Assembly (NCBI GenBank): GCA_003427395.1
Contig: BFEA01000010.1
Location: 2,894,235-2,958,234, forward strand
Source of the DNA: Chara braunii
Lineage: Eukaryota; Plantae; Charophyceae
Length of the DNA stretch: 64,000 nt
Reading direction: 5' to 3'
This document shows positions 12,761-36,363 of the stretch, one piece after another (positions within the stretch are counted from its first letter, which is position 1; every line of letters starts with the position of its first letter). The notes under the pieces were generated by a model. The model was given only the letters and a program-made list of their open reading frames with translations, was not told the DNA's origin and did not search any database. The position numbers were made by a program, and so were the translations under genes.

Positions 12761-12836
12761 AATTCTGACTTGTCGGAGGAATAGGAACCGGACTGTTGCT
12801 CCCCAGAATTGCAAGAGCCGGAACCGAAAGGTTCTG

Positions 12837-12868
<32 letters not shown>
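12761..12868 (+). mobile_element. short polyadenylated retroposed insert (SINE or 5'-truncated LINE 3' end)
   Basis: 76 nt plus A32 flanked by the direct repeat GGACTAA (12754-12760, 12869-12875); removal restores pol LRSFLGLTNYY. Confidence 0.9.
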
Positions 12869-12870
<2 letters not shown>

Positions 12871-14141: not shown

Positions 14142-14233
14142 ATGAATCGTCTTTGTCAACAACTTTTGCGAATGTATGTTCGTCCAGATGAATCGTCTCT
14201 GTCAACAACTTTTGCGAATGTATGTCCGTCCAA
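14142..14233 (+). repeat. 46-bp tandem duplication frameshifting the integrase
   Basis: atgaatcgtct..gtatgt.cgtcca at 14142 and 14188. Confidence 0.92.
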
Positions 14234-14996
14234 ATCAGATTGACTGGGATGAGAACTTGCCTAAAATTGCCAGTGCATATAACAACAGTATACATATTGT
14301 CACAGGTACAACACCTAACGCACTGCATAAAGGATGGAAGCCTAGGCGTCCCATTGATGCATTAACGAGGGACCAGATTCAACGGCTACCCCTAGGGACG
14401 CGCGAATTCGCAGTTTTGTATGAAGAAGATATCAAGAAGGTGAAGGAGAACATACAGAAAACCAACTGCAAATGATTGAACAAGCTAATAAACATTCTCG
14501 TCCTTTCACAATTCCAAGAAGGGGACTTTGTCTAGGTTAAGTCGAAAGAGTGTTCCTTAGAAGAAAATTTGTCTCAAAAACTGCTACCTGTCTACTATGG
14601 ATCCTGGGAAGTTCTCAAAGTAATTGGAGGTGAAGATGCCGTATAGATATACCTCCACATCTCATGACATACCCTCTCTTCCATGCGTCTAAGCTGCTAC
14701 CTTATGTAGAAAGTGACGATTTTCCAAATAGGTCATCTATGATTCCACCTCCTATGAATGGAGGCTACCAAGTTGAGAAAATATTGGAACATGGCTATTT
14801 CTCTACAGGTGGCACAAGACGACCTGAGAAGCAGTACAACGTAAAGTTCAAGTCCCAACCCTCATCTGAAGCCAGATGGTTTAGTAGTAAGGAACTACTA
14901 CCCACTGCCCCTGATATTATTGTTGCATATGAACGTGGGTTAACAAAGAATTAATGAATTTTCTGCTATGGGACTCGAAAACCGGGTCGGCAGGAA

Positions 14997-15628
14997 TGCA
15001 ATAACCCATGCCATATGTCTCATGGAGCTGAGGGTCATTAGAGGGCCGACTTGACCGCCCTCAACCCAGGCCGAACAAGGGCAGAAAAGGCCCTTCACGA
15101 ATTCAGGGTCTGGGCATGTCAACTGTCGGTCCACCCAACGGTCAAAGTCCAAAGGTACCTAGCCCAGGCCACAGGTCAAGAACACACACTTGTTTGTATG
15201 CAGGTACCCAGATCGCATCAGGTCCAAGGCAGAAGTTCGTAATTGTACAATCCGGGCCTTCAACTGTGAGTCAATCTGCACAACTGAAGGGAAAAGCACC
15301 GAGGCCAGACAACCTCGCTTATTGCTACTTAAGGCTGGCCTCGAGAGAGTCAAGGCATCCAGTCTTGCTATGCTGCTTTGACGTTGGCTTCATGCTGGCT
15401 GTGCACAAGCGTTGCGGACGACGGCACGAGGTGGAGGCAGCATGCCGGCACTTCTTCAGTGCGTCATGCCATGCTGATGTGGCGCTGCCTCTGGTCTACG
15501 TGGCATGCTGATGTGGCGCTGCCTTTGGTATATCTGGCGCTGCCTCTGGTCTACGTGGCATGTTGATGTGGCGCTGCCTCTGGTATGTGTGGCGATGCTA
15601 TGGAATACGTGGCATACTGATGTAGCGT
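14997..15628 (+). repeat. element A 3' LTR, left fragment
   Basis: repeat of 7357 to ~8023; broken by element B. Confidence 0.93.
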
Positions 15629-16829
15629 TGTCGGCCAGCTCCCTCCTTCGATCACCACCGGTTGCTGCTGGTCCCACTCCCTTTTAACGGCGCCTCCCGT
15701 GATGGCAACTGCCTGTCTTCATTCCGTTCTCTAGCGGCTTTCGGCCCTCTGGTTGGCTCCAAGGGAGCCGGTTCTCGAAGGGGTACTCGCTAAAAACCAG
15801 CTTTTCCCAGTGCGCCCCGACAGAACGACGGAACTGCGATTCGCAAAAGAAGGAGACTCCGACCGAACTCAGTTTTCCGAAGAGAATGACAGAACTACGA
15901 CCTTGCAAAAGAAAGTGGACCTGGACTGAAATCAATTTTCCCAAGTGGGCTCAACAGAACTGCGAGTTCGCAAGAGAAGTAGGCCCAGACTGAACTCAGT
16001 TTTCCCAAATGGACCCTAAGAGAACAACAGAAGCGCAGCTTTTGCAAAAGAATTGTACTCCGACCGGAAACAATTTTTTTTTGACCCTAAGAAAACAACA
16101 GAACCGTGATTTCGCGAAAGAAGTGGACCGGACCGAAATCGGCTTTTCCAAATGGACCCGGAAGAGAACAACAAAACTTAGATTTCGTAAAAGCCGTAAG
16201 GGTCGCCAACAGGGTTTCGATCGGGGCTCAGAAGTTCGTTGCAAATGTAACGCCNNNNNNNNNNNNNNNNNNNNNNNNNNNNNNNNNNNNNNNNNNNNNN
16301 NNNNNNNNNNNNNNNNNNNNNNNNNNNNNNNNNNNNNNNNNNNNNNNNNNNNNNNNNNNNNNNNNNNNNNNNNNNNNNNNNNNNNNNNNNNNNNNNNNNN
16401 NNNNNNNNNNNNNNNNNNNNNNNNNNNNNNNNNNNNNNNNNNNNNNNNNNNNNNNNNNNNNNNNNNNNNNNNNNNNNNNNNNNNNNNNNNNNNNNNNNNN
16501 NNNNNNCTCTCTCCCCCTCTCTCTCTCTCGCCCTCTCTCGCCCTCTCTCTCTCTCTCTCTCTCTCTCTCCCCCTCTCTACTATACACACCGAACTCTTTG
16601 ATAAGTACAAATTCAAAATCTTGACCTTCCGGCTTCAAACCTGCCCCCCCGAAGAAGCCGCGACTCGCCTTAATTCGCGCGCCCGTTCCCCTATCAGCCC
16701 AAGCGCACAGCCCGAACGAGCAGCGAACGGCCCGGAGATGGGCGATTTTCCTTGGAACCTCGACCCGCCGTGCCTTGCACGAGACTGCGCGACTACCGCG
16801 CTGCTGGAGTCGGAGGTCGAAGCAACTAT

Positions 16830-16905
<76 letters not shown>

Positions 16906-17250
16906 CGAGTCGCTCCGCCCTTCCTTCTTCCTCTCTCTCCCTTTCTTCGACTTATACGTAGTCCCCTCTGTCCGTCCTCCCTTGATTTCGGGCAGCGTCG
17001 CCAGCCGACGCCCCTCCTTACCTTAGCTCGAGCCTTCGAACTCCGGGGGTCCGTCGCCTGTCGGAACGCGGAGGTTTGCCCCTCGCTCCTCTTCTGGGGA
17101 GATGGTCGTTCACTTGCTCGTGCACTGTCCAGTGTCCCTTGTGCGCTGTCCAGTGTCCCTTGTGCGCCTCTCTCTCTCAGTCGGCCCAGCCGCTACCTGT
17201 GATCGTTCTTCGGAGCCATACCCCCCCCCCTTCACGACGCGAGTACTTGA

Positions 17251-17287
<37 letters not shown>

Positions 17288-18666
17288 ATGCTCGTTGATG
17301 CGGAGACACGAACGCCTTCTCCCACCTGCTCGCGGTTTCACTCCCTATCTCACGCGATGGTGGCCCTAGCGTTCTGCCCCTCCCTCTCTCTCTCCCTCAC
17401 TCTCCCTCTAATACGCTGGCCGAGCTCGTCTGCGGCGCATACGTCCTCGTGCGCCTCTCCCTCTTCCTCGTAGTTTGTTCTCCCGCCTCGCGCGTCGACT
17501 GCCCGTAAGTGAGCACTTTACGCCTTCCTATCTCCCTCCCTCACTCTCTCTAGTGCGCTGATCGCACGCGGCCGCGGCCGCGAGTCCTCGAGCGCCCCGA
17601 ACGCACGCGCGTTCCGTTCGATTTTCTCTCTCCCCCTCCCCCTCTTTTCCCTCTTCCTTATATGCCGGTTGCTTCCCCGAGTTCTCTTCTTCCCGATCCT
17701 CGTCCTCACGTTACGCCCCCGCCTGTCGGCGCTATTCTCCAAATTTCTGAATTTTTCGCTCTTTCCCGCCATATTCTTCTCTTCCCACCTCGCAATCCAT
17801 CGCCTGTCTATTCTAGCCAATAGCAGCTCGTGTCCACTCCTCTCCTTGGATTTCCACCACGCGAGGCCGCGCAGGAAGGACTCGCGATCGCGCGTTCCAG
17901 TTCCCGCCGCTTGCCTCGTCTCCATCGACGGACTCACACACTAACAGCTCCCCCTCTCTTGCGGCTGACAGTTATCAAGAACCCGTCTCGCGCTCTTTCC
18001 CGGGGTAACCGTTTATGCGAAGTCTCCTTCCCCCTTCCCGCGTTCGTATTCTTGTTCTTTCCCACATTCTTCTCCCCCTCCCTCTGTGTGTTATCTCGCC
18101 ATCCCATCGCCAGTTAAGCCTGGCACTTGGTCGGCTTCGCCACCTACCCCCTTTTTCCTCATTATGCAGCCTGCGGCCCGTCCCTATCTGGAGCAACGAA
18201 GTCGATAACCCTTCTCCCTGAGGCGCCCTCCGCCAACCCAACATCCTTGGATTTCACACCTTTCGTATATGGCGGTCCCTCAACCGGCTCAATTGCCTCC
18301 CCGCGTTCCGTCAGGACAACCCCGCAGCTGCATGCAGCCAAAATAAGTGGGCCCATCTCCGCACCCAGTTTCTTCTCGGTTTCCCCCTTGATCTTATGTC
18401 GGCCGCCTTCCCCCCTATTCTTCTCACGCCACGCCGGACTCCCATATTTTAGTCTGCTTCCGACATCGTTTACGACCTTGCGTTGATTGTCTTCATCACT
18501 GCTTGCTTAACGTTAGTGGAAGTCAAAAGGAACCCCAAGGTTTCCCCAAACCCCTCAGGTCTCACGCATCCACGCATCCAGTCATGCAAGAACAAAAGAA
18601 ACATGTCCAAAAAAAAATTGAGTTTAGCAAGAAGAGCGTAATCGGCTGGTAGGCAGCCGCCCGACA
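15629..18666 (-). repeat. element B 3' LTR (~3.0 kb including a gap)
   Basis: direct repeat of 32343-35922 (about 94-95% identical in a 110-nt sample); contains ~65-bp tandem units and (CT)n tracts. Confidence 0.95.
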
Positions 18667-19002: not shown

Positions 19003-19284
19003 CTACACTCGTCTCCGCCTCCTCATTCTCTTCTCTCGCCTCTCTCTCTTTCGTTTCTTCTCTTCCCTCTCGCGTTTGGATCTTAAGGTCTTCCTCGAGG
19101 TGCTTCTTCTTTCTCTCAACCTGCGTTTTCCTAGCTGGTCGGTATCACTGTCGTCGTCCCTTGGCCTCTTCTTTTTCCTAGGCGTCTTGGGCAGGGAAGG
19201 TATCCGAACCTTATACCTCTTCTTGAGCGGTCGTGAAGAGGCCCCTAGTTCCGACGTCTCTCTTTTTTCGTAGGCAATGGTCAT
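19003..19284 (-). CDS. small, highly basic (Arg/Lys) ORF downstream of integrase; function unknown
   Basis: 93-aa ORF PKTPRKKKRPR...KREREEKKRKRERREKRMRRRRRV; may be a detached integrase tail. Confidence 0.35.
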   Translation of the reverse strand: MTIAYEKRETSELGASSRPLKKRYKVRIPSLPKTPRKKKRPRDDDSDTDQLGKRRLRERRSTSRKTLRSKREREEKKRKRERREKRMRRRRRV

Positions 19285-19329
19285 CTCTATGTCAACTGCC
19301 TCCTTCCCTTTTCTTTTCGGTTCTTCTCT

Positions 19330-22300
19330 AGGGGTCCCCCTCGATCGGAAAGTTTGAGGCGAGCCCCCGTGATAGGGTCTCGTAACCTGGTCCCGTCTAA
19401 TTCGACAGGGAGATACGCTCCCCTATCCAATCTTTTTAGGACGGTACGGCCCCATCCACCGGTTGGCTAGCTTCCGGCTCCACGTCTTCTCTAGCGACGA
19501 GTCGTACATCAGGACGAGGTCACTAGTCCCTATCGGCTTTTGTCGGACCCGCAAATTCTTGTCCCACCTTTCCTTTCCTTTCGTCCTCTCTTTCTCGATG
19601 TTTCTCCCCGCCTCGGTAAGTCCGGAGTCTAGGTTTTCGGCTATTTGTCGTATCCTCGCCTCTAACAACTCCCCCCTTGTCATGTTGGTCTTCCACGTGA
19701 CACTTGTCGACGTGGAATTTGATGGGCAGGGGGCAGTGCCTACCGAACCAAAGGGCGTAGGGGGGATACCCCGTACTTGATTTGACTGTGATGTTGTCGG
19801 CCCAAACCGCATAGCGCAAATACTTTGGCCATTGTTCCTCACGCCCCTTGCACCACTTGGCTAAGGCATCTACAAGCGTCTGGTGACCTCTTTCGACTGG
19901 GGCGTTGCTTTGGGGGTGATATGCGGTTGTGTAGGCCGCCCTAATCCCTGCCTTTTCTAATATCGCTTTGACCTTTTGGCTTGAGAACTCGGACCCCCTT
20001 ATCCATGACTATCTTCCCGACACACCCGTACCTGGCGATGTATTCTAGGAGAAAGTCACTCACCTCCTCGGCCGTCTTCCTCTTAATGGCCTTAGCTTCT
20101 ACGAATCCAGCGAGGTCATCGCGGGCATTGATTATGTACCAAAGTCCACCGACTCCCTTGGGCATGGTCACCAAGTCCACATGGATCTTCTCGCCCGGCA
20201 CTGTGGGGAGCGATGGAACTAGGGGTTCATTATAGCGAACAATCGCCCTCTTTTGGCAAGCTTCACAGGTCGAACAATATTTTTCCACCTCCCCGTATTG
20301 TCCGTCCCACCAGTAAAGTCGTAGAACCTTATCAAACGTCCCTTTTACCCCCCGGTGACCGCCGACGACCCCATCGTGTAATTCTTCTATGACTGCCTTC
20401 TTTTCTTCCGGGTCGCAAAGGACCCTCATGGGAATTGCGAACTTCGTGGGCCTCTTAAAGAGGTGGCCTCCTCGTAAGGATTACCCGAGTGCCTCCCTTT
20501 TGACTACTTCGGTGCCTTCTTCCCGACCCGCCAGGTATAATCCTATATCTCGATATTTCCCGTTGTGAAGGTTAGCGAGGACCATCCTAGGGCCTTCGCC
20601 TTCTCCTCGGATGGTCACCGCTACTTGCGCTTTGTTAGCGGCGACTTGGATCATCTCGGCCTTGGACATTGCTAGCCTAGCTTCCTCTAATCGGGGATAA
20701 TCCTCTTCTCTGATTGGGAATCGGGACAACCCGTCGGCGACCTGATTTTTGGCCCCAGAGATCCTCTTGACTCTAAAATAGTAGAGCCTAATGTGGATCA
20801 TCCACCTAGCGATAGTCGGGTCGGTTAGCGAGAAGTCCTTTTGAAGGACAGCTGCCACCGCGGTTGGGTCCACTCTTAGGAGGAACCGCCTCCCGTAGAT
20901 GTAGTGGCGGAAGGTCTTTAGGCAGTGCAACACCCCTAGCACCTCTTTCTTGAATTGGTTGTAGTTCCTCTCGGCGGGATTTAAGGCTCGACTCTCAAAA
21001 CGCAGGGGTCTTTCTTTCCCGTCTCCATCCCTTTGCGACTGAAGCCCCCCTATGGAGTATGGCCCCGCATCTATAGATACTATAAACAGGCGGTTCTCCT
21101 CGTCCTCGAAGAACAGAACGCCTAGGACTTGCCCCCCCTCTCGGAATTCGTCCTTAAGGGTTTCCATGGCCGCGGCCTGCTCTTCTCCCCAGACCCATCC
21201 TTCAACTTTCCTAAGCAGCCGCCTTAGTGGCTCCGCCTTCTCGTTGTAGCCTTCTATAAAGATCCTCCAGTAGCCTACCACCCCTAAAAACTGCCTAACC
21301 TCCGTGATGGACTTTAGCGACGACGGCCAGGTCATCAATTTTTCTATTTTTTCAGGATCGGGCCTCCGTCCATCCTTGTCACAGATGAAGCCCAATATCT
21401 TGATTGACGATACTCCCCATCGACTCTTCGCTCCACTTACCGTGATGGACTTTACCGGCGACGACCAGGTCATCAATTTTTCGAATTTCTCGGGATCGGG
21501 CCTCCGCCCATCCTTGTCGCATATGAAGCCCAATATCTTGATTGACGATAATCGCCAGTGACTCTTCGTTCCACTTACAGTAAGGTTGGCGTCATCTAAT
21601 TTCGTGAGGACCTCCCTTACATCTACCATGTGATCCACCACAAACTTCCTTACTCCGGGGAAGACCTCCATCTCATCTTTTTGGACTGACCCTTTTATCG
21701 GGAAGTCGTCAAGGAAGACCTCTACCTTATCCGATATGAATTCCTTGAGGACTGCGATCATGGCTCTTTGGAATACCACCACCCTGTTTGTCCATCCCAT
21801 AGGCACTACCATCATTTGAACCAGCCCTAGAGGCGTGTGCATCGCTGTCATGTGTCTATCACATTAGTCTAAGGGGATTTCGTCATAGCCCGAGAAGAAG
21901 TCGCAGATCGAGTAAATCGAGCGACCCGCCGATCCTTCTGCGAGTAAATCCGCCTCAGGTATAGACCCCACATCTCATATGGTGACTGCATTGGTCTTTT
22001 GGAGATTTTGGATCCACCTCAATTTGTTGCTATCCCCTTTCCTCAGAAAGAACCATTTGTTGGAATAGACACTCTCACAAGGCTCCGCGACAAACGTCCT
22101 TATCTTCTCTTTGATGAAGGCCACTATCTCTTCCTTCTCTTTTTGCACATACTTCCACGGTGGTCTATCTTTCCAAGGAACGTGAGGGACCGTATGGATC
22201 CAGGCGGGCTTAGCGTACCTTGGGTCTATCCTTTCTCTTTCCGAATCATCGAAGGCTATGGCCTTATCGCAATCCCTTAGGGTCATAGCCACATATCCCT

Positions 22301-23773
22301 TCTCTTGTTTCGTTAGGTTTCCATCCCCTATGTTCATTTTTGCTAGCCTATCAGCTGTAATTCTTTGCCCTTCGGTCTCCTTCCGCTTCCGGATAATATC
22401 GGTTATCTCCTCCTCCGATATCGAAGCTTCCCCCATTCTATCCCGACTGACCGCGGCGGGTTTCACTTTTTCCGCTACGGTTTTATGCTTCTTACCTCTG
22501 CCAGCTAGAGGGATTCCCCGCAAAAAGACAGCCTTATGCACCCGCCGAATTCCTCGTCTTCATCCTCCTTTTCATATCCGACCCCATCGATGATTATCCC
22601 GTCGCCAATCTCCTCGACTTCTACCCGTTCCCCTGGGGGTTCCTTCTCGGCGAAGGGGGACTCTTCTAGTCAGACCCGACAAACTCGTGACTGGGCTTCT
22701 CTCCTCCTTGGCACACTCGTGCGATTCCTCTCATCTTGAGCATCCACCGTCCTTAGGACCACTCGAATTTCATCCAGATTTTGGATCGAGAGGGTCTGGC
22801 TTCCGTCTGGAAGATCGACCGTAGTAGCATGGACCACGCTTAGCCAAGTTCGCCCGAGGATCAACTCGGAGGAACATTCTTTCACTGAGAATATTGGGAT
22901 GGTCGCTTCTACGCCAACGACCTCGATCATAGGGTTGTGACACACCCCTTCCACTGGTTGGAGCTTGTTGTCCGCAACTACCATGGACATCGACACTCCT
23001 CTATCGACTTCTAACCCTAACTCCCTTGCAATGAAGTCTCGACATACGGTAGATTCGAACCCATTGTCCACTAGGGCTCTCATTTTTTTTCCACTCACCA
23101 CGGCTTGGAGTTGGCCGCTCCCTAATACATAGAATTTCTTGACCTCTTCCTCCGAGAAGAAACTCATCGGCAGTTCTTCCATCGCGATCCGAGAGGACTG
23201 CACCTCTTCCTTGGCGGGTCCATCCCCAGGAACGGTTGACCCTTCTGCGAGCAGAATTCTCACCTTCTTAGTGATGCACAGGAGCTCGTCTCTAGCACTC
23301 TTGCTTGCTGCTAAGTATTCAAGAAGAGTGCATTGCATTGGCTGCATTAGAGTCCTCCGTAGGGGTGCAATCGTATCTATCTCGTCCAAGGTGCACTTCA
23401 TCTTGAACTTCTTTGGTCCTTTCTTTCTAGGTGATTTAGGCGACGTGGGCTCTTCCCCGTTCCTCTCCTCCACGACTTTGGCGTCGACCATCGGTTGGTC
23501 GTCGTCACCACTCCTCCCTCCATCTACCGTTGCAATTTCCTTGCTCTTAGACGGCCCGGCCCCAACTTGGGTCCTTACTCTTAGGCACGGTCCCTCTTCT
23601 TCAGGCTTGGTCTCAACGAATTTGATGCTAGACACCTGCGGCTCCCTTATGGACACGCCTCCTGGAGCCTCCGTCATTTGGACGCGGGAGGAGCTGGAGG
23701 TCCCACCGACCTCAGGCTTCTTTCCCAGTCTTGCCTCTCGTAGGGCAACCCTTTTGTCCACATTTATATTCAT
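19330..23773 (-). pseudogene. element B pol: aspartic protease, RT, RNase H, integrase; stops and frameshifts
   Basis: ALVDNG..LILGRTW (protease); LRWIQNLQKTNAVTI, PMGWTN, FLDDF (RT); IDAGPYSIGG, VADGLSR (RH); HDGVVGGHRG..CEACQ, IHVDLV (INT); no chromodomain seen. Confidence 0.93.
21303..21578 (-). repeat. in-frame 138-bp (46-aa) tandem duplication in RT
   Basis: two copies of TVSGxKSxWxxSSIKILGFICDKDGRRPDPEKxEKLMTW; 15 differences in 138 nt by manual count. Confidence 0.95.
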
Positions 23774-23779
23774 CGAGGG

Positions 23780-25547
23780 TTAGACGGAGACCGCTTCTCC
23801 ATCATCCCCCCATACGACCCACTTATTTTCATTTAACTTCACCACCCCTAACCTTAGGGCCTCTGTGAGGTGAGGACACTCCCGCTTCACATGATTATCT
23901 TCATTGCAATAGACACACCCGCTTTGAGGCGGCGGATTGTTAAAGCGAGGGGCCACTTGAGGTGCCACCCCCATAGTCGTTGAAGGACCGGGTGGCTGCG
24001 AAGCTCTAGCCTGACTTACCTCGGGACGAGTCCCCGTGGCTCTAGGTTGCGGAGGGTCTCCCCACCTCCCATCTCTAGCATCTTTCCAATGGGAATTCCC
24101 CCAGTCAGATCCTCGATTGCCCCCAACTTCCCGGTCATTTCTCCAATTCCCTTGGTTTCCGGACTCGTTCCGCCAACTTGCGGGCCCCCCTCCCCAGTGT
24201 TGGCAGGGAGGCCCAGGTGGCGGCCTATCGTTCCCGCGAGGACCATCGTTCCGTTGGATACGCATGCTTCGGAGTGCCATGTTCAGACTCTCCTTCATAT
24301 ACTCCCGTACGTCGACTCCCCCCCCCCCGTAAAGACCACTTCAGCGACTCTTTCGAAATTTGTCGAGTCTCTAGGGGCCCTCTCGAGAACCTCTTTCCTC
24401 TTCTCTTCCGGCAGGTGCAGCATAAACATTACATACCTATCCACTTCCGAGAGCATCCCCCTATCCACCAAAGCTTGCGACAAGCGTTTTAACCATTAAG
24501 CGAAGGCTACCAGGCTTTCTTGTTCTCCTCTTGAGACCGGCGCAACCCTTCTAACGTAGGGATCAAGTCGTCGCAGGCGAAGGTCCGCAACAAGCTGCTC
24601 TTGAAGGTCTTCCACCTCCCATCCACCGGGTATATTGCCCTAATGGCCTGGTTTAGTTCAAGATCCGAATGTTGTATAAAATGGTTGATCCATTCCTTCT
24701 TCGATAATTTCTTCCGGAAGGCGTAGCTTTCCCATTTCTCGACGAACCCGATCACGTCCCTCCCGTTAAAGTAGAGCGTCTCAAGTCCTAGGTTCACATC
24801 GTAGTAGGGGACTCGTCGGTCGTCATACCGACAGAAGTAGGGACCTTCCGTCGGCCCAACTATCACTGGGTCATAGGGTTTGTACCAAGCGGGGTCTAGA
24901 TCCTCCATCCATGGCCGAGCCCTCGGAGGTCCCCACAGTTCCTCCTCACGGCGGCCTCTCTCACACGGGTCCTTTTGCTCCCAGCGTTTAGGTTCTTGGA
25001 CTCTAAACCCTCTCCAGGCATCTCCAAGTCCTCTCGCACTCCTCCTCGTCATCTCTTTCGGCGCCCATGCAGGGTCTATCTCTCGCCCGACCCACCTCCG
25101 TGGTCCTCCCAACGTCTCCACAGGTCGCTCCTCCCCCAACTCTCTCCTTCTTAAGCTCCCTTTTTCACCCCTCTTGGGCGCCCAACTCCCCAACCTTTCA
25201 CGCGAAAAATCTTGGCCTTCTCCGGTCCTTTCTCCCATATCTACTCGATCTGCCCATCGGGTCTCGACAGGGAAGCCCGTAGAGGTTTCCATTGCCCTTT
25301 CTCTAGCGGATACCCGCGGCTCGACCTCCCTATTCGGACACACCTCGATGCTCGCTCTCTCTCCTACAGCAGATTTTCTCTCGCCGAGAGAAGGTTCCAG
25401 GCTTCTCTCAGCCCTACCTATCTCCTCCATTCTTTCGGTTGTCTCCTCGGTCACCTCACTTAATCTAGCCCCTAAAACGACATCTTTCTCGATCTGTCCC
25501 ATGGTCTCAGGTGGTCTAGAAATCCCGGGCTCCACTTCACTCTCCAT
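23780..25547 (-). pseudogene. element B gag (capsid plus CCHC knuckle), frameshifted
   Basis: FNGRDVIGFVEKWESY..WKTFKSSLL capsid-like block; CVYCNEDNHVKREC knuckle; directly upstream of and in frame with the protease ORF. Confidence 0.85.
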
Positions 25548-25565
25548 GCACCCTATTGCTTCTTT

Positions 25566-26771
25566 TTAGTTGCTTCCCTCACTAGTGTCACTCCCTTGCC
25601 CTTCCGCTTCGCCTCTTTCTTTTGAGCTCTCTTCCCCCTCACTTGATTCTTGTTCCTCACTATCACCCTCGGATTCTTCACTAGTCATGGTCCACCAAGA
25701 GTCGCGTACTCGTTTCTCTTTGCAAGCAGCTAACGCGAGGTTGGCAATCTCTAGATCGAAAATGCCCCTAATCAATTCTTGAGAACACCTTTTAATCAGA
25801 GCTCTATCCACCTCTTCGGCTTGCCCTTTAAACAGAGGCTTAATGAACTCCCCTACTAATGCCCACCACTCGAAGTCCGTATGCTCCCACGACTCCCAAC
25901 ACTGGGTGAATAACTCGTGTCCCTTCTCCTCTCCTAGGGGAAATTTTTCAATGACTTGTCCTCTATGCAGGACCTTCCTCACGGCTGCGTCGTCGGGGTA
26001 GAGCAACCGGTACGCCCAAGCCGGAATTTCCCAGGTCCGGTCGTGAGCCGCCCTAGGGACCTCTAGCCTCCCTCGGTACTCAACCCTATCTACCACGCGT
26101 CCTTCGGCGGCACCCCCTCTCAACCCCCTAAGCCGGTCTAGGGCTTTTCGGGCGATACCTAGAGGGTCCTTTCCTTCTGCTAACTCGGTCGCAAAGAACT
26201 GCCTATCGTCGTGAGACAATTTCAGCCCTTCACGTGCGGGTACCTCCCTCAAAAACTATCGAAAAACGAACTATCGTTTCCTGCCCGTAGATCTCGAAGA
26301 ACTCCGTAATAACCTCTCCTACCTCCCTATTCTTGGGGAGGGTTACTCTATACCTAGCCCCCGACTTCCAATCCCTCTCCAAGGTCCCGACAGGGCTTCC
26401 CCTGTCGTATCTCCCGTCCTATCCCAGAAACGGGCCTCAACAAGGTGCAACCTGGCTTTGAAGGGAGACCCGAGCCACCTAGAGTCCTCAAACTTTGTCT
26501 CGACCTCAAGCAAGGGTTCTCTCCAAGTCCTAGAGAACCGTACTTCCCCCGCCTTACTAACAAAAACCGAAAACTTCGCTTACGCGCTCCAGGATCTCCT
26601 CTTCCACAAAGCTAACCGTCGGATCTCGACAAGGAACTCCTTAGCTCGAGCCTCCTGGTTCTCTCCGAGACCCGGGCTAAGTTCCGCCCCCCTTTCTACC
26701 TCGACCTCGGGGCCGTCATCCCGCGTCTCTAATTCCCAGGCTATTGAGTCAGAGGCGAAGGTAGCTCTCAT
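25566..26771 (-). pseudogene. accessory paralog P5 (unknown domain plus acidic tail); 2 stops and 1 frameshift
   Basis: ATG 26771; LKLSHDDRQFFATELAEGKDPLGIARKALDRL aligns with P4 ILLSKEGFLEVVRSLKLGEDPLLYARAVQDRL; EVPRA and LFTQC motifs. Confidence 0.7.
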
Positions 26772-26773
26772 GC

Positions 26774-27710
26774 CTATCTTCCTCCCGAGAGCAGCTCCTC
26801 CTTCAATTCGTCGAAGATCTCAACTGTGGTGGTCTCAAGTTATTTGATCTTGCACAAAGATCTTGGCCTTGCCCTTCTCTCCTCTTCCCAGCAAAGGGTC
26901 AGGATTCTATACACTTCTGCCCTCACCCTCTCTAGTCCCACTAGTTCTCTGGTGTCAGGCTCCCTCATGCCTCAGGTTCCTTTGCCAACACGCAATTGCG
27001 ATCCGAATTAGATCCGAGGGGTCCCATCCTTCTAACCCCGCCTCACAGATCTCCCCCAAGTACCTCCACGAAATGGTCGATGCCCTTACGTGTTGGCCCC
27101 AGCCTTCAAAGGCGTAGCCCAGGTCCTCTAGTGACGACCCATTGTCTTGGTACGGATTTCGAAGGCACCACGATAACAGGGCGTGCAGGTCTGATCCCGT
27201 GAACCGAAATTGGTTCAAGATCAAGATCCTACGCTCTATTGCCCTCTTGACCGCTTCGGAGGGGTAGACCCACTCAAGGATGAAACGAGGGACTCCTACG
27301 GGGTCACTGGCGACAAATAGCGGTACCTCTTCCCAACCCTCGTACGTCACTTGATATATCCTTTGGTACCTCTCTCTAGCACTCACCTCCTCCACTAGTC
27401 TCTCTAGACGGTCTTGTACCGCTCGCGCGTATAAGAGCGGGTCTTCCCCCAACTTCAAACTCCGGACTACCTCTAGGAAACCCTCCTTCGAAAGGAGTAT
27501 CTTGGCTTCCCCAATCACCAACCCCTCCTCGCTACTCACTGACAACCGAATGAACGCCTTCCCTCGGCGGATTTCGGACACTTCCCTTCGAATGGTTCTC
27601 GTCGGACCCTCCAGGCTCGTCTTTGGTAATGTGATGTGGACANCCNCCCCCGCCTCTTCTACAGGCTCTATCGAGGCCCAAAGAGTTCCGAAAATTCCCC
27701 TTATCATCAC
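26774..27710 (-). pseudogene. accessory paralog P4 (unknown domain plus helical tail); 1 frameshift and 1 stop
   Basis: 251-aa ORF 26955-27710; tail in another frame ends LLSGGR-TAG 2 nt before the P5 ATG. Confidence 0.7.
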
Positions 27711-27737
27711 CTCGTCCGAGCCTCGTACCCCCTCCGG

Positions 27738-28468
27738 TTAGTCTTGCTCTTCCCCAAAGGGGCGGGCATATGGGACATCAACAACGTGAGCTCTCACCCC
27801 CTCAAACTCCCTTAACCTTTCGAATATAGGTGCTAGCTCTCTCCTAGGGGGAGCCCCAGCGTCGACACACCGAGTGTAGAGCCAAAATAGCCCTTGCGTC
27901 CGCACCCCGAATTGTTGCGGGCTTCGGAGTATTTCTAACACTCTCCCTTCCGGATCCTGTAGGAGCGATCGCACCAGGAATTCGGGCAAGGCAGCGTGGA
28001 GCACCCTGGAAGCTCGAGGGACTTCGCCTGGCTCGGCGAAGGACACCTGCGTCCACGACTTGAAAGTCCCTTCTTCGTAACTGCTTAGTGCCAGATCGTT
28101 CGCTACCTTCCTTGCGAGCTCAAGGTACTCCGTATGAGTCTCTAAACCGGTCACTAAACCCTTCCAAATTTCGGTCCACGAACCTTCGTCGAGGAATACC
28201 GTAGCCTGAAACTCTAGGAACCGTCCACGGTGAGGCGGACCTCCCCTCTGCACCCCTTCCTTCCAGGTGAGTCGACGAGCTCGAACCCACGCGTAAGCAC
28301 CTTCTCTGATGTTCTCTCCTTCTCAACACTCGACCAGTAGGGAGTTACGCGAGGGTGGTTGCACTGGGAGCCAGTGCTTGTTATATCACCAGGGATCAAG
28401 AACTGGCCTCTGTCACCGACCTCTATCGTTTTTACCACTCCGTTTTCACTGAGCGCAAACCTTACCAT
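27738..28468 (-). pseudogene. accessory paralog P3 (unknown domain); 1 frameshift near 28325
   Basis: MVRFALSENG..YWSSVEK / GENIREGAYAWV..QATVFLDEGSWTE..GEVPRAS..GLFWLYTRCVD. Confidence 0.75.
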
Positions 28469-29132
28469 CTACCGACGTTGTTTTGAAGACCCACTCGCGG
28501 TACTTCTCAGGTGAGAAGGCGACAGACTTTTCCAGAGACCCAAGTCTCCTAAAAATACCCCAGAGTTTCCTTCGCTAAGGGATTCCCTGGTCGATACAAT
28601 GAGTGTACAGTACCCACAGAGCCCTAAATGGTAGGCCTAAACTTCTTCCTCCCTCCAAGAGTCTTACTACCCTATCCTCGTCTGTGCTCAAGAACACAAA
28701 GCCCGGGGCCCTTATGATTACCAGATAACTCGCCCTCGGGAGCTCACCTGCCCGAGCGAACCTTTCCACCTCTATCGCCACAAAGCTAAATCCCCTCCGG
28801 GTCCTAATTATCCACCTTCTCCTCACTGCTCTTACTTCTTGGATCAATAGGTCCAGCCCACCCCCTTGGCCTAAGACCAGGGGTACTGCAACCTTTGCCC
28901 AAGCGCCCGGCTCGACGAAGATTATCACAGTGACTTTGAGATGCACCTCAGTCGCTCCATCCCTTACTTCTTCCGACTCTATCCACACGAAATTCCCGCC
29001 GACCGTGATTTCTCCACCTTCCAACCTCCTCCAATCGGGGACTGCCCCGTTGCTCGGAACCAAGCTATGAACCCCTCGCTCGTCTAAGGGGGATTCGACA
29101 AACTTACCGAGGTCCTTGTCAAAAAGAATCAT
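28446..29132 (-). pseudogene. accessory paralog P2 (unknown domain); 1 internal stop at 28575
   Basis: VTVIIFVEPGAWAK..GELPRAS..LGLPFRALWVLYTHCID; frame stays open past the TAG and stays similar to P3 (RRKLWGIFRRL vs RRELAPIFERL). Confidence 0.75.
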
Positions 29133-29137
29133 TCATG

Positions 29138-29879
29138 CTAACCTACCTTTTGGCGGACTCCAAATACACTTCGATAAGGGTAGCCTCTTCCGCCTTCACG
29201 GTCTCGCTCCGATTCCAGAGAGATCCTTTCTCGGATCCGATCGGCCCTGACTCTGTATGGCACTGGGTTGTCCACACAATAGGAGTAGAACCAATGAAGC
29301 GAACGAAAGGACAACCCTCTCCTTTTCTCCCGCCTTATAGACCACGACCTTCTCGTACTCGGCCCTCTCTCCACACACTCTCCTGAAGACGTAAGCCGGA
29401 AATATGGCTTCGACGCAACCCGTAGCATGAGGGTATTCCTCGTCCCGAGCACAAGTCACTCGCAAACGGAACGGCAGGTTGTGCCGAAGGCGTACCTCCT
29501 CGAAGATCTGTTTAAGAATAGGCCCCACGCGTACCTCCCAATGGTCCGCCCGATACCACCCCAATGCCCAGTGGGTGACGTACTCTACCCAGGCCTCCTG
29601 ACTCAAGTAGATCGTGCCCTCAGCACGAACCGCCGCTCGTCGAGCCTTTCCCCCGTTCGCAGGTCTACTCTTGGTCCACTGATCTCCTTCCCAAATATCT
29701 ACAGCAAATCGCGCCCAGAGAAAAAATCCCTTTTCGAGTTCTAGGCCTCTCTCGCGTCCGACTAAATATCTCTCCGTACAATGGTCTAAAGGGACGCTGA
29801 AGCACTCCCTCTCCTTGTCGAGGTCGGCCTTTTCGATTTGGACCCTACCGTCGCCAGTCGCCTCTACAATCCTGACCAT
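29138..29879 (-). pseudogene. accessory paralog P1 (unknown domain); 1 frameshift
   Basis: MVRIVEATGDG..KGFFLWA..EGTIYLSQEAWVE..EYPHATG, then in the second frame GLSFRSLHWFYSYCVD. Confidence 0.75.
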
Positions 29880-30573
29880 GGACCACCTCCTCGATGATTC
29901 CTACTAACACCTTCCAACCGTCCGACCCGTCGAGATAGGCCTCTGGCATAGTCGGGGTGGGTCGCTCTCCTTGTCGGAAGGTCCGGTAACCCAATGTGTA
30001 GAAGTACCGGATCCCGTAATTTCCTAAAAGTTCCCTTTCTAGCTGAGCGTAGCTAACAACCTCTTCCCAGCTACTGAGGAAGTCTTCCCCTCGATCCGAA
30101 CCTTCCTCTACATAGAGCGCTATATCAAAATCCCCGGTCCATAGATAAAAGTTGTAACACCATACGTCTATATCCCCACAACTACCCACGCTAATGCCCG
30201 TCGGCTCAGACTCCAAAACTCCTAGGCTCCCCACTATCTCCTCTATGATCGCGACCAATACTCTCCACCCGTCCGACCCGTAGAGATAGGCGTCCGGAAT
30301 CACTGGCGTAGGTCGACCGCCCCTAGGATAAGTCCGGTACCCGAGAGAGTAGAAGTATCGAAACCCGTATCCTCGCAGCTCCCCTCTTTCCATACGAGAG
30401 TGGTCGGCCGCCTCCTCCCATCCGCGAAGGAAATTTTCCCCCTGATCTTGCCCTTCCTCTACATAGATGGCAATGTCGAAATCTCCCGTCCACAGACGAA
30501 AGGTGTAGCACCACACGTCGACTCCACCGTGACTACTCACACTAATCCCTTCCGAGACCGCCTCTAAGCTCAT
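29845..30573 (-). CDS. accessory ORF0, intact 242-aa protein made of two ~117-aa repeats; function unknown
   Basis: DVWCYxFxLWTGDFDIAxYVEEG..YGxRYFYxLGYRT..PTPxxPxAYLxGSDGWxVLVxIIEExV occurs twice with mostly conservative substitutions. Confidence 0.8.
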   Translation of the reverse strand: MSLEAVSEGISVSSHGGVDVWCYTFRLWTGDFDIAIYVEEGQDQGENFLRGWEEAADHSRMERGELRGYGFRYFYSLGYRTYPRGGRPTPVIPDAYLYGSDGWRVLVAIIEEIVGSLGVLESEPTGISVGSCGDIDVWCYNFYLWTGDFDIALYVEEGSDRGEDFLSSWEEVVSYAQLERELLGNYGIRYFYTLGYRTFRQGERPTPTMPEAYLDGSDGWKVLVGIIEEVVHGQDCRGDWRR

Positions 30574-32320
30574 ACATCCTACTCAAAGAAGGTCCTTTTT
30601 GTCACCCTAACTTTAGGTCACTCGAGAGACCAGCCCTACCCTGCAAGGAGAAGGTGCCTGTGAGCTCAGCAGGATCAAATGGACCAGAGAAGGAACGCCG
30701 TCTCACTCGGCTACCTTCTTGTCCTCCCCTGCTGAGAGGTCCTCCCACTTCCATGTATAGAAACTAGCCGCGAACACAGGTTATCCCCGAAGAGGGGTGC
30801 CAACCCCCTCTCCGTAGTTGGACCGTAGTCACACACTCGTGCCCTACGTCCCCCACCGAACCGACCCCTAGTCCTAAGTTAGCCTATCCGGCACCACGCC
30901 CCTACTCGGCCCCCCTCGAGCGTGGAATTACCCGGGTTCCAGGACTTTATCCGCCTATCGATCAATGATCACTAGCCTGTCAACTCCCTCCCATTCTTCT
31001 CCTTATATCATGAACTCTTCTCACTTCGTTCCCTTCTTCCTATTCGCCTCCGTCGAACTCTTTTCTCTCTCGGAATCGGAGAATTTAATCGAGGTCTTCA
31101 CACAAAAGGGTGGGGAATTAGAACTTTAGAAAGAGAGTCTCTCAAGTTTGGCCACTTTAAATACGTACCTTGTAGTCTTCGACCTTTTTAGAATTCGTTC
31201 TCGTAGTCCTAGTAGTCCCCGAGATCCGAGTCCGAGAAATCGGCTAGACACCGGTCCACCCAAGAGTCGGCCTCCGATTCGTCGTCCAAGGTGCCCCACA
31301 TATCTCTCCTCTCTTCTTCTCGAATTAGCCCCCTACCCCCTCCGTTCTCAACGGCGGCTGGAGTTCCCTCGACCCTTTGCCCCGGAACCCGAAGCACTAC
31401 CCTTCTCGCTCCCGAGTCCCGAACAGCACCCGTTTGAGAATTTCGCTCCCTCGAGGGAGTCGTGTCCCGCGCGAGTCCCGTCCACAATCCGCGTGGGTCG
31501 AGAACAGAGAACCCTGCCCCCTCTCGAGAAGCCTGTTCGCCCGCGGGAATTTCGTCCCGTGCGGGTGACGTCCACAACCCGTGTGGGTCGAGGATATTTG
31601 GCAAGCCTCTCTCCCTTTGGACCAACCCTCTTGGATCCCAAACAGATGGCGTCCAAGGACCCTCTCGAACCGCCCTTTCCTCTCTTCCCCAAGCGTTCAC
31701 TCTCTCTTCCCCACGTGCGGACCCACTCACACAATTTCCCCGCACGACTCTTCTTCCCCCCCTTAGATTGTTTTTCACCCTCATTCAAGCCCCACAAGCA
31801 AACTGTTTCACCCTCTTAATTTGAGAATTTTGTTTTTTTTTTGAAATAAACACACATAAAAATTATCACACTACCCAGCAAGAGTCTGACCTGGATTTTT
31901 GGAAGGAGCAAGTGGGGCCGAAGTCGCAAGTGGGGCCGGCGCGGACCTGCAAAACCAAGAGAACCGAACACCCCAAGCCCCTCGCACCCAAGCAACCCAG
32001 TAACCCCTTCCACACGGAAAACAAGACCTCAGACAAACACACGCCCCGACGCTGCCTGAAGCCACCCAAAAGGCACCGGGGACCTTGGAATGCCAAAAAA
32101 AAAGGTCGATGCCGAAATACCGTCGAAATAATCGATGCCGAAAACGAAACGGCCGTAGAAACTGATGCCGATATAATGCCGTCGAAACATTTGACGCCTA
32201 AACGAACTTGTCGAAGAAACTGATGCCGATACCAAAAAAAATGCACCCTCCACCACCTGTCAGGCTCGTCCTCCCTCACACCGCGGTCCTTGAGCCAACC
32301 GAGACCGCGGGAGAATGCTC

Positions 32321-32339
32321 ATCCCCGGCAACGGCGCCA
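32321..32339 (-). promoter_or_regulatory. primer binding site complementary to plant tRNA-Asp
   Basis: Minus strand TGGCGCCGTTGCCGGGGAT, 3 nt from the 5' LTR; same PBS type as Athila-like elements. Confidence 0.9.
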
Positions 32340-32342
32340 CTT

Positions 32343-33060
32343 TGTCAGCAAGCTCCCTCCTTCGATCACCACCAGTTGCTGCTGGTCCGACTGCTGGTAG
32401 TTCGGGGGGGCGCTCCCTTTTAGCGACGCCTCCCGTGACGGCAGCTGCCTGTCTTCCTTCTGGTCTCTGGCAGCTTTCGGCCCTCTGGTTGTCTCCAAGG
32501 GAGCCCGTTCTCGGAGCGGTACTTGCTAAAAAACAGCTTTTCCCAGTGCACCCTGACAGAACTGCGATTCGCAAAAGAAGGAGACCCCGACCGAACTCGG
32601 TTTTCCGAAGAGACTGACAGAACTACGACCTTGCAAAAGAAAGTGGACCTGGACCGAAACCAGTTTTCCCAAGTGGGCTCAACAGAACTGCGAGTTCGCA
32701 AGAGAAGCAGGCCCAGACCAAGCTCAGTTTTCCCAAATGGACCGTAAGAGAACAACAGAACCGTGGTTTTTGCAAAAGAAGTGTACCCCGACCGGAAACA
32801 ATTTTTTTAAAATGGACCCTAAGAGAACAACAGAACTACGATTTCGCGAAAGAAGTGGACCGAACCGAAATCGGTTTTTCCAAATGGACCCGGAAGAGAA
32901 CAACAAAACTTAGATTTCATAAAAGCAGTAAGGGTCGCCAACAGCGTTTCGATCGGGACTCAGAAGTTCGTTGCGAACGTAACGCTTCCCCCCCACCGAG
33001 CCAGAAGCCCCGATATGCCTCCCTTCCCCGCCGTGAAGCCGATATCTTTCTCTCTCTCTC

Positions 33061-33139
<79 letters not shown>

Positions 33140-33499
33140 NNNNNNNNNNNNNNNNNNNNNNNNNNNNNNNNNNNNNNNNNNNNNNNNNNNNNNNNNNNNN
33201 NNNNNNNNNNNNNNNNNNNNNNNNNNNNNNNNNNNNNNNNNNNNNNNNNNNNNNNNNNNNNNNNNNNNNNNNNNNNNNNNNNNNNNNNNNNNNNNNNNNN
33301 NNNNNNNNNNNNNNNNNNNNNNNNNNNNNNNNNNNNNNNNNNNNNNNNNNNNNNNNNNNNNNNNNNNNNNNNNNNNNNNNNNNNNNNNNNNNNNNNNNNN
33401 NNNNNNNNNNNNNNNNNNNNNNNNNNNNNNNNNNNNNNNNNNNNNNNNNNNNNNNNNNNNNNNNNNNNNNNNNNNNNNNNNNNNNNNNNNNNNNNNNNN

Positions 33500-33583
<84 letters not shown>

Positions 33584-35922
33584 AGTCGCTCCGCCCTTCC
33601 TTCTTCCTCTCTCTCCCTTTCTTCGACTTATACCTAGTCCCCTCCGTCCGTCCTCCCTTGATTTCGGGCGGGGTCGCCAGCCGGCGCCCCTCCTTACCTG
33701 AGCTCGATCCTTCGAACTCCGGGGGTCCGTCGTCTGTCGGGACGCGGAGGTCTGCCCCTCGCTCCTCTTCTGGGGAGATGGTCGTTCACTTGCTGGTGCG
33801 CTGTCCAATGTCCCTTGTGCGCCTCTCTCTCTCAGTCGGCCCAGCCGCTACCTGCGATCGTTCTCCGGAGCCATACCCCCCCCCTTCACGACGCGAGTAC
33901 TCGATTCCTCTCTCTCTCTACATGCTCGTTGATGGCGGACGCGGAGACACGAACGCCTTCTCCCACCTGCTCGCGGTTTCACTCCCTATCTGCGCGATGG
34001 TGGCCCTAGCGTTCTGCCCCTCCCTCTCTCTCTCCCTCACTCTCCCTCTAATACACTGGCCAAGCTCGTCCACGGCGCGTAGGTCCTCGTGTGCCTCTCC
34101 CTCTTGCTCGTAGTTTGTTCTCCCGCCTCGTGCGTCGACCGCCCGTCAGTGAGCACTTTACGCCTTCCTATCTCCCTCGCTCACTCTCTCTAGTGCGCTG
34201 ATCGCACGCGTCTGCGGCCGCGAGTCCTCGAGCGCCCCGAACGCACGCGCGTTCCGTAGGATTTTTTCTCCCCCCCTCCCCCTCTTTTCCCTCTTCCTTA
34301 TATACCGGTTGCTTCCCCGAGTTCTCTCCTTCCCGATCCTCGTCCTCGCGTTACGCCCAGGCCTGTCGGCGCTATTCTACAAATTTCTGAATTTTTCGCT
34401 CTTTCCTGCCATATTCTTCTCTTCCCACCTCGCAATCCATCGCCTGTCTATTCTAGCCAATAGCAGTGCGTCTCCACTCCTCTCCTCGGATTTCCACCCC
34501 ACAAGGCCGCGCAGGAAGGACTCGCGATCGCGCGTCCCAGTTCCCGCCGCTTGCCCCGTCTCCGTCGGCGGACTCACACACTAACAGCTCCCCCTCTCTC
34601 GCGGCTGACAGTTATCATGAACCCGTCTCGCGCTCTTTCTTGGGGTAACCCTTTATTCGAAGTCTCCTTCCCCCCTCCCACGTTCGTATTCTTGTTTTCC
34701 CACATTCTTCTCCCCCTCCCTCTGTGTGTTATCTCGCCATCCCATCGCCAGTTAAGCCTGACACTTGGTCGGCTTCGCCACCTATCCCCCCTTTCCTCAT
34801 TATGCAGCCTGCTGTCGTCCCTAAATCTTTCTCCATTCGTCAAGGCGGCCTGGCCGATCGTTCTCTATCCCCTCCAACTCATCCTTTGGCCGATCCTTCC
34901 TTACGTTCGCTTCACCCAATGGCGACGCGAAGCTGCCCGCCTCTCGGATTCAGCTTCACCCAAGCGCTCAACCACCTCGCTCGTGGCCCACCTCTTCAGC
35001 CCAGCTTCAGCGTTCGTAACAGTTGACGAGCGCGCTCCTCCTCTCAACCGTCGTCTCTCCGTTTGCCGGGTCGATCTTCTCTTCCTCCCTCAGCCGTCAA
35101 TTCGCGCAGTCCCCTCCTTTCCTCATTCATTTTCCCTCCATACAAGGTTCTCAGCCGTTGAAGCTAGTATTCGACTAGCTCGATCATTCAGTCGGCCACC
35201 CCTCCCAACTCTGTCTTGCACATACACCCCGAGTCGTCGGGTCACATCGGTTACCCCGCTGCCTGCTCCAGAAGTTCTTTGACGGATCAAACCTACCCAC
35301 CGAGCGACGATGTTTGGGTCGGGGCTGGTCACGCAGCACTGTTTGGGCCAGCCCTAGTGTACCAAAGCCGACCCTAGAGTGGCAGCCATAACGACTTGTG
35401 TACAGTCAAGGGTGACTGCCTCGAGGCCTGCGGCCCGTCCCTATCTGGCGCAGCGAAGTCGATCACCCTTCTCCTTGAGGCGCCCTCCGCCAACCCAGCA
35501 TCCTTGGATTTCACACCTTTCGTATGTGGCGGTCCCTCGGCCGGCTCAATTGCCTCCCCACGTTCCGTCAGGACGACCCCGCAGCTGCGTGCAGCCAAAA
35601 TAAGCAGCCCATCTCCGCACCCAATTTCTTCTCGGTTTCCCCCTTGATCTTATGTCGGCCGCCTTCACCCCTATTCTTCTCGCGCCACGTCGGACTCCCA
35701 GATTTTAGTCTTTTTCTGGCACCGCTTACGACCTTGCGTTGATTGCCTTCATCCCTGCTTGCTTAACATTAGTGGAAGTCAAACGGAACCCCAAGGTTTC
35801 CCCAAACCCCTCAGGTCTCACGCATCAACGCATCCAGTCATGCAAAAACAAAAGGAACATGTCCAAAAAAAAATTGAGTTTAGCAAGAAGTGTGCGATCG
35901 GCTGGTAGGCAGCCGCCCGACA
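32343..35922 (-). repeat. element B 5' LTR (~3.6 kb including a gap)
   Basis: repeat of 15629-18666 plus 619 extra nt (34813-35431). Confidence 0.95.
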
Positions 35923-35926
35923 GCGC

Positions 35927-36363
35927 TGCTACTGGTCTACATTGTTGACGTGGCATTGTCCACGCTGTCTACATGAAGTGATTGGTTGCGAGGAGGAAGA
36001 TCGGGATTTGTGGTTGAGGGAGAACGAGTACTCACCTGGGTTTGATGTCAATACTGGAATCTGCAATGTCTTCATGGTCTTCATGATATTGAGTGCCACG
36101 TGGCACTTCCGTGTGTGATCAGGAATATACGTATTATCATTGTCGATGTGAAGAGGGGAGAAGCCCGGAGAAGGAGAGGGTCAACAGGGATTATTGTCTG
36201 ATTCTTCATCTTCTCCTTTGTTTGTTCCCCCTCCCCTTTCTTCTATTGATGATAATGAGATACGGTTTGATATATTTCTTCACGAATTGGAGACTTTGAT
36301 GCATATACCGACTCTACAAGTATTGGACGACTTCGGACTATCTGTAAGACCGGGTTCATTACA
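35927..36363 (+). repeat. element A 3' LTR, right fragment
   Basis: matches ~8025-8420 and ends gggttcattACA. Confidence 0.93.

Follow-up and report, generated by a model that had tools for sequence, protein, structure and literature searches.

Accessory reading frames upstream of gag

The window analysed here is a stretch of 64,000 nucleotides (nt) from Chara braunii (assembly GCA_003427395.1, contig BFEA01000010.1, positions 2,894,235 to 2,958,234 of the forward strand), and all coordinates below refer to it. On its minus strand lies a decayed copy of a long terminal repeat (LTR) retrotransposon of 20.3 kb, which carries gag-pol and, ahead of gag, a cassette of accessory open reading frames (ORFs). 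Other copies were sampled through contigs of two DNA runs, through gene models and through one contig of 1297 nt (L001); tens of distinct contigs cover most positions, with up to 55 in one row, and differences from this copy were judged on the best 40 rows per comparison, with 638 and 293 further rows beyond them. The array consists of seven or eight abutting predicted accessory ORFs before gag and belongs to a multi-copy family. Its features are as follows.

29845..30573, minus strand: ORF0, 242 amino acids, intact, with two repeats of 104 amino acids; the other-copy gene model P0129 starts at the same ATG
29138..29879, minus strand: P1, member of a paralogous family; frame break near 29340 in this copy, stop present in a diverged contig
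28446..29132, minus strand: P2, paralog; carries a private internal stop at 28577-28575 (96% of depth differs)
27738..28468, minus strand: P3, paralog; this copy has a foreign 35-nt piece at 28357-28391, and its frame breaks near 28315
26955..27707, minus strand: P4, paralog of 250 amino acids; open in this copy, with two N bases
26774..26968, minus strand: P4b, 64 codons from ATG 26968; internal stop at 26842-26840 private, open in other copies
26412..26771, minus strand: P5a, truncated by a deletion near 26411; carries a private internal stop at 26582-26580
25566..26412, minus strand: P5b, full-length paralog of P4 with an acidic tail; own start lost in the deletion, frame break near 26220
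25548..29876, minus strand: ATG-depleted tract (14 ATG against 41.5 expected)
23780..25547, minus strand: gag, with a weak zinc knuckle; its frame is broken in this copy, and L001 has the same start context

A first-pass annotation had joined these frames across their breaks. Other copies support most of the joins; the unit called P5 resolves into P5a, a deletion and P5b. Many contigs break off at 26410-26412, from both sides, and gene model P0124, which starts at the ATG of P2, runs on beyond the point of deletion in P5a, while P0125 reads through the internal stop of P2. Moreover, gene models P0002 and P0127 begin with Met at the site in P5b that is homologous to the first residue of P4, and P0121, P0122, P0123 and P0128 end at the homologous P5b stop before gag. 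P5a and P5b are likely to be two ORFs. The stop that precedes P5a belongs to the P4b frame, which overlaps the P4 stop by 14 nt and may be either a separate small ORF or the shifted end of P4. With P4b and the two P5 units added, gag becomes the eighth or ninth cistron and not the seventh, as had been counted.

The 35-nt piece in P3 is not covered by other copies; one DNA run shows very high depth over it, and the RNA reads that match it, at 99% or more, are flanked by unrelated sequence. Judged from these matches, the piece derives from another, abundant sequence. Its peptide may correspond to mitochondrial nad5, and the piece is likely organellar filler DNA at a repaired break.

Stop-start junctions in this and other copies

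The junction spacings agree with those described in the first-pass annotation: ORF0 and P1 overlap by 35 nt, P1 and P2 are separated by 5 nt, P2 and P3 overlap by 23 nt, P3 and P4 are 30 nt apart, TAG-GC-ATG at 26776-26769 leaves a gap of 2 nt, and 18 nt separate P5b from gag. Six of seven junctions place stop and start within 30 nt of each other and one at 35 nt; all seven fall between -35 and +30 nt, for which the chance is about 0.115 each.

Comparison with other copies separates these junction codons from the stops within the ORFs. The internal stops at 28577, 26842 and 26582 are all among the strongest differences, each with 87-100% of depth, whereas none of the seven junction stops and none of the seven starts is found there. 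The junction codons are thus not private to this copy as judged from these contigs, from which it does not follow that they are invariant. In addition, private changes lie mostly at codon positions 1-2 (32 of 39 and 26 of 32 scored rows, and 10 of 10 in P4), the pattern expected if other copies keep the proteins, agreeing at these positions and varying at the third; the cassette is thus coding.

Three junctions were followed further. The 30-nt gap between P3 and P4 is present here and looks private: a 2-base length difference at 27742 is found in 8 and 4 contigs (36% and 16% of depth), and the spacer is nine bases shorter in six contigs. In both arrangements the P3 frames of other copies likely end on a stop that overlaps the ATG of P4. 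A diverged contig that occurs in both runs has the P1 stop in the same frame, and its spacer is shorter by one base; the contigs at these two junctions were read by eye from alignments. L001, which has 69% DNA identity to this copy, keeps the P5b stop and places gag 19 nt behind it, out of frame, with an identical gag start context and a diverged acidic tail upstream. These separate, conserved paralogous ORFs, the shared stops and the out-of-frame spacer of L001 uphold the polycistronic organisation that had been proposed for the cassette. Readthrough in frame from P5b into gag was considered as well and is ruled out by that spacer.

The start codons themselves have weak or moderate contexts. 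None of the eight starts combines a purine at -3 with G at +4, the features of a strong start under the general -3/+4 rule, whereas five of the next 11 ATGs in gag do. An AGG shortly upstream of most starts had also been noted. It does lie within 12 nt of seven of the eight starts, against a background of 36% (P 0.004, uncorrected and with a window chosen post hoc), but it is not conserved: one diverged contig lacks it at P1/P2, and six contigs lack it at P3/P4. AGG is at most a weak signal. A Shine-Dalgarno reading of the motif was rejected: the mean duplex value is -5.9 against -4.2 (P 0.04), two starts drive this difference, and the element is nuclear.

ATG is depleted between the P1 and gag starts

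From the start of P1 to the start of gag (4329 nt) ATG occurs 14 times against 41.5 expected under a first-order Markov model (P 7e-7), and it is the most depleted of the 64 triplets in this tract. The reverse-strand control, CAT, is found 32 times against 24. There is no such depletion in gag (36 against 27) or in pol (80 against 70), and the boundary of the depleted tract is exactly the gag start. Among 321 other 4.3-kb intervals of the 64-kb stretch the ratio has a minimum of 0.81 and a median of 1.05, compared with 0.34-0.38 for the cassette.

The depletion extends to all frames. Out-of-frame ATGs number 9 against 24.6+-3.6, and none of 2000 synonymous shuffles, in which protein and codon usage were fixed, reached a value as low. 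Within the frames, Met accounts for a single one of 1372 cassette codons, compared with 37 of 1500 in gag-pol. Likewise, the cassette proteins of other copies contain 2 internal Met in 8 stretches (1556 residues), whereas their gag-pol contains 2.0-2.5%. Five of the 14 ATGs in the tract are starts, one abuts the start of P2 and eight are internal. Three of these eight are private, with a difference in about 93% or more of the depth of other copies (0.34 expected, P 0.005), which suggests that the active family was cleaner of ATG still.

The cassette proteins form a paralogous family

Sequence comparison groups most of the predicted products. P2 matches P3 (E 1e-11), the C-terminal frame of P1 matches P3 (E 2e-5) and P2 (E 2e-4), P4 matches P5b (E 2e-6), and a profile of P4 and P5b matches that of P1 to P3 with a probability of 93.5% (E 2.4e-7). 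By these predicted sequences, P1, P2, P3, P4 and P5b make up one paralogous family, whereas ORF0 encodes a different protein. Tandem duplication of a single accessory gene is the most likely origin of the array. The two repeats of ORF0 (29887-30549) are 66-70% alike, and each is predicted to contain three strands and a helix; an out-of-frame ATG-TAG start-stop occurs at the same place in both.

Searches returned almost nothing beyond Chara. A profile search of 1.84 billion representatives gave eight matches, six of which are Chara braunii gene models, and a search with ORF0 at longer lengths gave two, both from Chara. A scan for loci related to P5b yielded L001. No homolog of P4 was found at near lengths, no P4-related locus in metagenome or viral contigs, and no gag-start motif in viral or prokaryote contigs; these searches found no relatives of the cassette proteins outside the family in this genome. 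P4 had no match in the ESM Atlas, and ORF0 approached nucleotidyltransferase clusters at 0.79, under the lead threshold. The cassette proteins had no match in sequence searches of the PDB, and fold searches, run with poor structure models (mean predicted local distance difference test scores of 48.5 and 38.1), found nothing that reached E 0.001 or Z 5. RNase H-like folds for P5b and PUR repeats for ORF0 (E 0.37) stood at the top of the fold lists, are non-significant and are not taken as evidence. No Pfam, PDB or confident fold match, the models being poor, links a cassette protein to the transactivator/viroplasmin (TAV) type. There is no clear membrane segment, the best 19-residue hydropathy being 1.9, within a frame that follows a break.

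Translation of the cassette

Internal AUGs harm scanning ribosomes only, whereas translating ribosomes ignore them. That ATG has been cleared from all frames up to the gag start therefore suggests that 40S subunits travel through the bodies of the ORFs, and we consider it reasonably probable that P1 to P5b and gag are translated from one RNA by leaky scanning. The 40S subunits would scan the block and a fraction would initiate at each weak or moderate AUG, while the remaining subunits would move on through an ORF body free of AUG, meet the next start and in the end arrive at gag-pol, which would result in a graded output. The earlier view that scanning could not reach gag is contradicted by these 4.3 kb cleared of ATG in all frames. 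As ORF0 and the leader keep their AUGs, we propose that ribosomes enter the block by another route, although this part of the model is weaker: they could reinitiate after ORF0 or after the tiny ORFs within it, or they could load on an RNA that starts, or has its splice acceptor, close to where ORF0 ends. Reinitiation at the close stop-start pairs may top up each step, and leaky scanning and reinitiation may act together. More tentatively, one RNA might yield eight or nine proteins, gag-pol last, by scanning of an AUG-purged coding stretch longer than 4.3 kb. Compared with plant pararetroviruses, the tract would be about five times as long and the cistrons three times as many, and the array would stem from a tandem-amplified accessory gene whose dose would be set by position.

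Several observations weigh against leaky scanning. ORF0 has 7 ATGs against 7.5 expected and has not been cleared, and the leader, with 9 against 16.1, is only mildly depleted and includes one ATG in strong context; scanning from the cap to gag alone is unlikely with both of them uncleared. In the diverged L001 the depletion before the gag start is much weaker (7 ATG against 11.3 expected). Within the tract, the internal ATG at 28960 has a strong context, and it and four others are not among the demonstrated private changes. Furthermore, gag encodes a structural protein, and few ribosomes would remain to make it after eight leaky steps; reinitiation accounts for the tight stop-start spacing at least equally well. 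The RNA reads, drawn from 6-13% of each run, numbered 0 for X5, 116 and 123 for X6 (mostly less than 90% alike and on both strands) and 17 for X7 (all on the foreign piece); they are too few and too short to show translation or transcript structure, and the mechanism rests on sequence.

The first-pass annotation had favoured termination-reinitiation or a set of spliced or subgenomic RNAs. Neither is the best fit to the ATG depletion, while reinitiation may contribute, above all after ORF0. As the main route, sequential reinitiation would have ribosomes restart at the adjacent AUG in the manner of caliciviruses, SART1 or TAV, perhaps aided by a cassette protein. Such a route would account for the position of all seven junctions between -35 and +30 nt in a tract where ATG is rare, for the likely fused stop and start of P3 and P4 in two sub-groups of copies despite a 9-nt difference in their spacers, for a P5b-gag spacer of 18 nt here and 19 nt in L001 with the same start context, and for an ORF0 that overlaps P1 and yet is not ATG-poor. 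We nevertheless regard it as unlikely to be the principal mechanism, because it does not predict the depletion and because its usual signals are lacking: the UGGGA motif precedes the stop at one of seven junctions, at background density, and there is no stable structure around the starts (folding z from -1.33 to 1.65), although decay of the copy lowers the power of both tests; Rfam has no match in the cassette; and its proteins, with poor structure models, gave no TAV-like match. The 35-nt overlap of ORF0 and P1 also exceeds the limit of about 30 nt described, in the accessible part of that report, for the termination upstream ribosomal binding site (TURBS; PMC10275272). Nested spliced or subgenomic RNAs, each with a different ORF first and with the AG before each ATG as 3' splice acceptor, would solve both the entry past ORF0 and the dosage of gag. 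An AG lies within 12 nt of all eight starts and a TAG of five (backgrounds 0.71 and 0.19), the AGG is found at seven, and the AG-G five bases ahead of the gag ATG is kept in L001. We hold this explanation to be quite improbable, in that it does not predict the loss of ATG through whole ORF bodies, no pyrimidine-rich tract precedes the starts (0.21-0.43 against 0.42), the excess of TAG is partly due to neighbouring stop codons and AGG is absent at two junctions in other copies. The RNA reads contain no joints, at a coverage too thin for them.

A single continuous polyprotein had been named as the outcome that would overturn a polycistronic organisation; a third rival explanation is such a polyprotein, or non-coding DNA, in which the junctions are products of decay and of the joining of frames. 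The copy is indeed decayed, with LTRs that are 93.2% alike and many breaks; P3/P4 and P5b/gag are in frame in it; annotated gene models link cassette pieces to gag-pol; and P5a with P5b and P4 with P4b may each be a single ORF. Against this, the stops at P5b/gag and P1/P2 are common to other copies whereas the internal stops are private, four other-copy proteins end at the P5b stop, the L001 spacer is out of frame, and five of the seven junctions shift the frame with no row of insertion or deletion at them. The concentration of private changes at codon positions 1-2 is also what would be expected if other copies keep the proteins, and the gene models that link cassette pieces to gag-pol leave out thousands of bases, in a way that resembles predicted splicing. 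On these comparisons a polyprotein is largely refuted for P5b/gag and P1/P2, and for the cassette as a whole we consider this explanation very remote.

Comparison with known systems

Judged from its sequence signature, translation of the cassette may resemble that of rice tungro bacilliform virus (RTBV) and the badnaviruses, in which, as described in the accessible text, leaky scanning across the AUG-free ORFs I and II, about 900 nt in length, brings ribosomes to ORF III (PMC5902531). Like the Chara element, these viruses are reverse-transcribing and have accessory ORFs before a capsid/RT (reverse transcriptase) ORF, close or fused stop-start pairs, AUG-cleared ORF bodies and weak or moderate starts. 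They have three ORFs and a tract of about 900 nt, whereas the cassette has seven or eight starts, two to three times as many, and extends over at least 4.3 kb, about five times as far. In contrast to them, the system described here is an LTR retrotransposon with an integrase, its ORF0 is uncleared and its accessory ORFs are tandem paralogs. In bicistronic nuclear genes of the green algae Chlamydomonas and Auxenochlorella, leaky scanning has been shown by mutation, with ATG ratios of 0.43-0.49 in the accessible part of that work (PMC11291117), which shows that ribosomes of the green lineage are capable of it. In these genes, as in the cassette, the first start is weak and ATG is depleted ahead of the downstream ORF, the ratio for the cassette being 0.34; they consist of two short host ORFs behind short 5' untranslated regions in chlorophytes, whereas the cassette lies in a mobile element of a streptophyte.

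Among retrotransposons, Ogre has one long ORF1 before gag (PMC1142308; PMC6317226), and Ogre and the plant eORF-5'F elements are, like the Chara element, large gypsy elements unlike chromoviruses that have long LTRs and carry an additional sense ORF ahead of gag (PMC6317226; PMC1142308; PMC7264820); neither an array of paralogs nor clearing of ATG is reported for them, as far as they are described there. The MDG1 group of Drosophila, also gypsy elements, has two small translated ORFs, sORF1 and sORF2, upstream of gag (10.1101/2025.03.14.642691). According to the available sections of the report, these two ORFs encode 70-110 amino acids, one product is a membrane fusogen and a polyA site lies between them. 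The cassette proteins, at 200-280 amino acids and with no clear membrane segment, are unrelated to these. The calicivirus TURBS and SART1 likewise place stop and start within about 30 nt of each other, sometimes fused (PMC10275272). As portrayed in that source they involve a single junction with a dedicated RNA element and do not need AUG clearing, and neither the motif nor a hairpin was found here.

Very few eukaryotic mRNAs are known to carry more than two or three long ORFs. The literature searched, in which most subscription papers and the Chara genome paper fell outside coverage, described neither this cassette nor a tandem array of paralogs ahead of gag, nor any LTR element whose gag is reached by leaky scanning. 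The useful range of leaky scanning by a 40S subunit is an open question, and if the mechanism proposed here is correct, an array of 4.3 kb with seven to eight starts would set a new bound and could offer a ready design for the expression of several genes from one transcript in plants and algae. The analysis also reveals a predicted accessory protein family of five paralogs kept by a successful retrotransposon family, and depletion of ATG in all frames could serve as a simple screen for hidden polycistronic cassettes in transposons. Host gene annotation is affected as well: predicted Chara braunii genes P0001, P0002, P0121-P0126, P0129 and P0130 are chimeric and absorb cassette pieces together with unrelated element or host exons.

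Setting and lineage of the host element

The remaining parts of the element are as follows.

32343..35922, minus strand: 5' LTR (TG...CA), with an N run and a 0.6-kb stretch that has no counterpart in the 3' LTR
32322..32339, minus strand: primer binding site, 3 nt inside the end of the 5' LTR
30574..32321, minus strand: leader, with short repeats and nine ATGs
19423..23779, minus strand: pol, with protease, RT, RNase H and integrase in Ty3/gypsy order; broken
15629..18666, minus strand: 3' LTR, from the LTR alignment

Two LTRs, a primer binding site and gag followed by protease, RT, RNase H and integrase in this order mark the element, as read from its sequence, as a member of Ty3/gypsy. The identity of its LTRs was determined over 2500 aligned bases, the two target-site copies differ by one base, and no polypurine tract stands out clearly. 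The primer binding site is presumably of the tRNA-Asp type, a type characteristic of the Athila lineage, which is further defined by the phylogeny of RT, RNase H and integrase and by an env-like ORF at the 3' end. A 191-codon frame in the leader (31784-31209) has no support as a gene. The 120 relatives of the RT and RNase H listed among 213 found are all Chara braunii gene models, the best of them 75-84% identical, and the pieces of pol, which are broken, gave no Pfam match to the archaeal-type RNase H that marks Ogre/Tat. The in-frame stop between gag and protease (23780-23782) is read through by the other-copy gene model P0003, and gag-pol is likely a single ORF in the family.

Within pol, the RT region at 21302-21581 contains a tandem duplication of about 140 nt, 89% alike, which related gene models do not have. 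The interval from pol to the 3' LTR is only about 750 nt long; in it, a very basic frame of 139 codons (19003-19422), rich in Arg and Lys and without a Pfam match, follows the integrase. The stretch of the 5' LTR that lacks a match in the 3' LTR measures about 600 nt (34824-35425), and both LTRs contain long GA microsatellites with N gaps. The whole element is nested in the LTR of a second gypsy element (7357-8420, 14997-15630 and 35954-36363), whose gag-pol lies at about 9250-14250 on the plus strand and has a normal ATG density (95 against 87.6).

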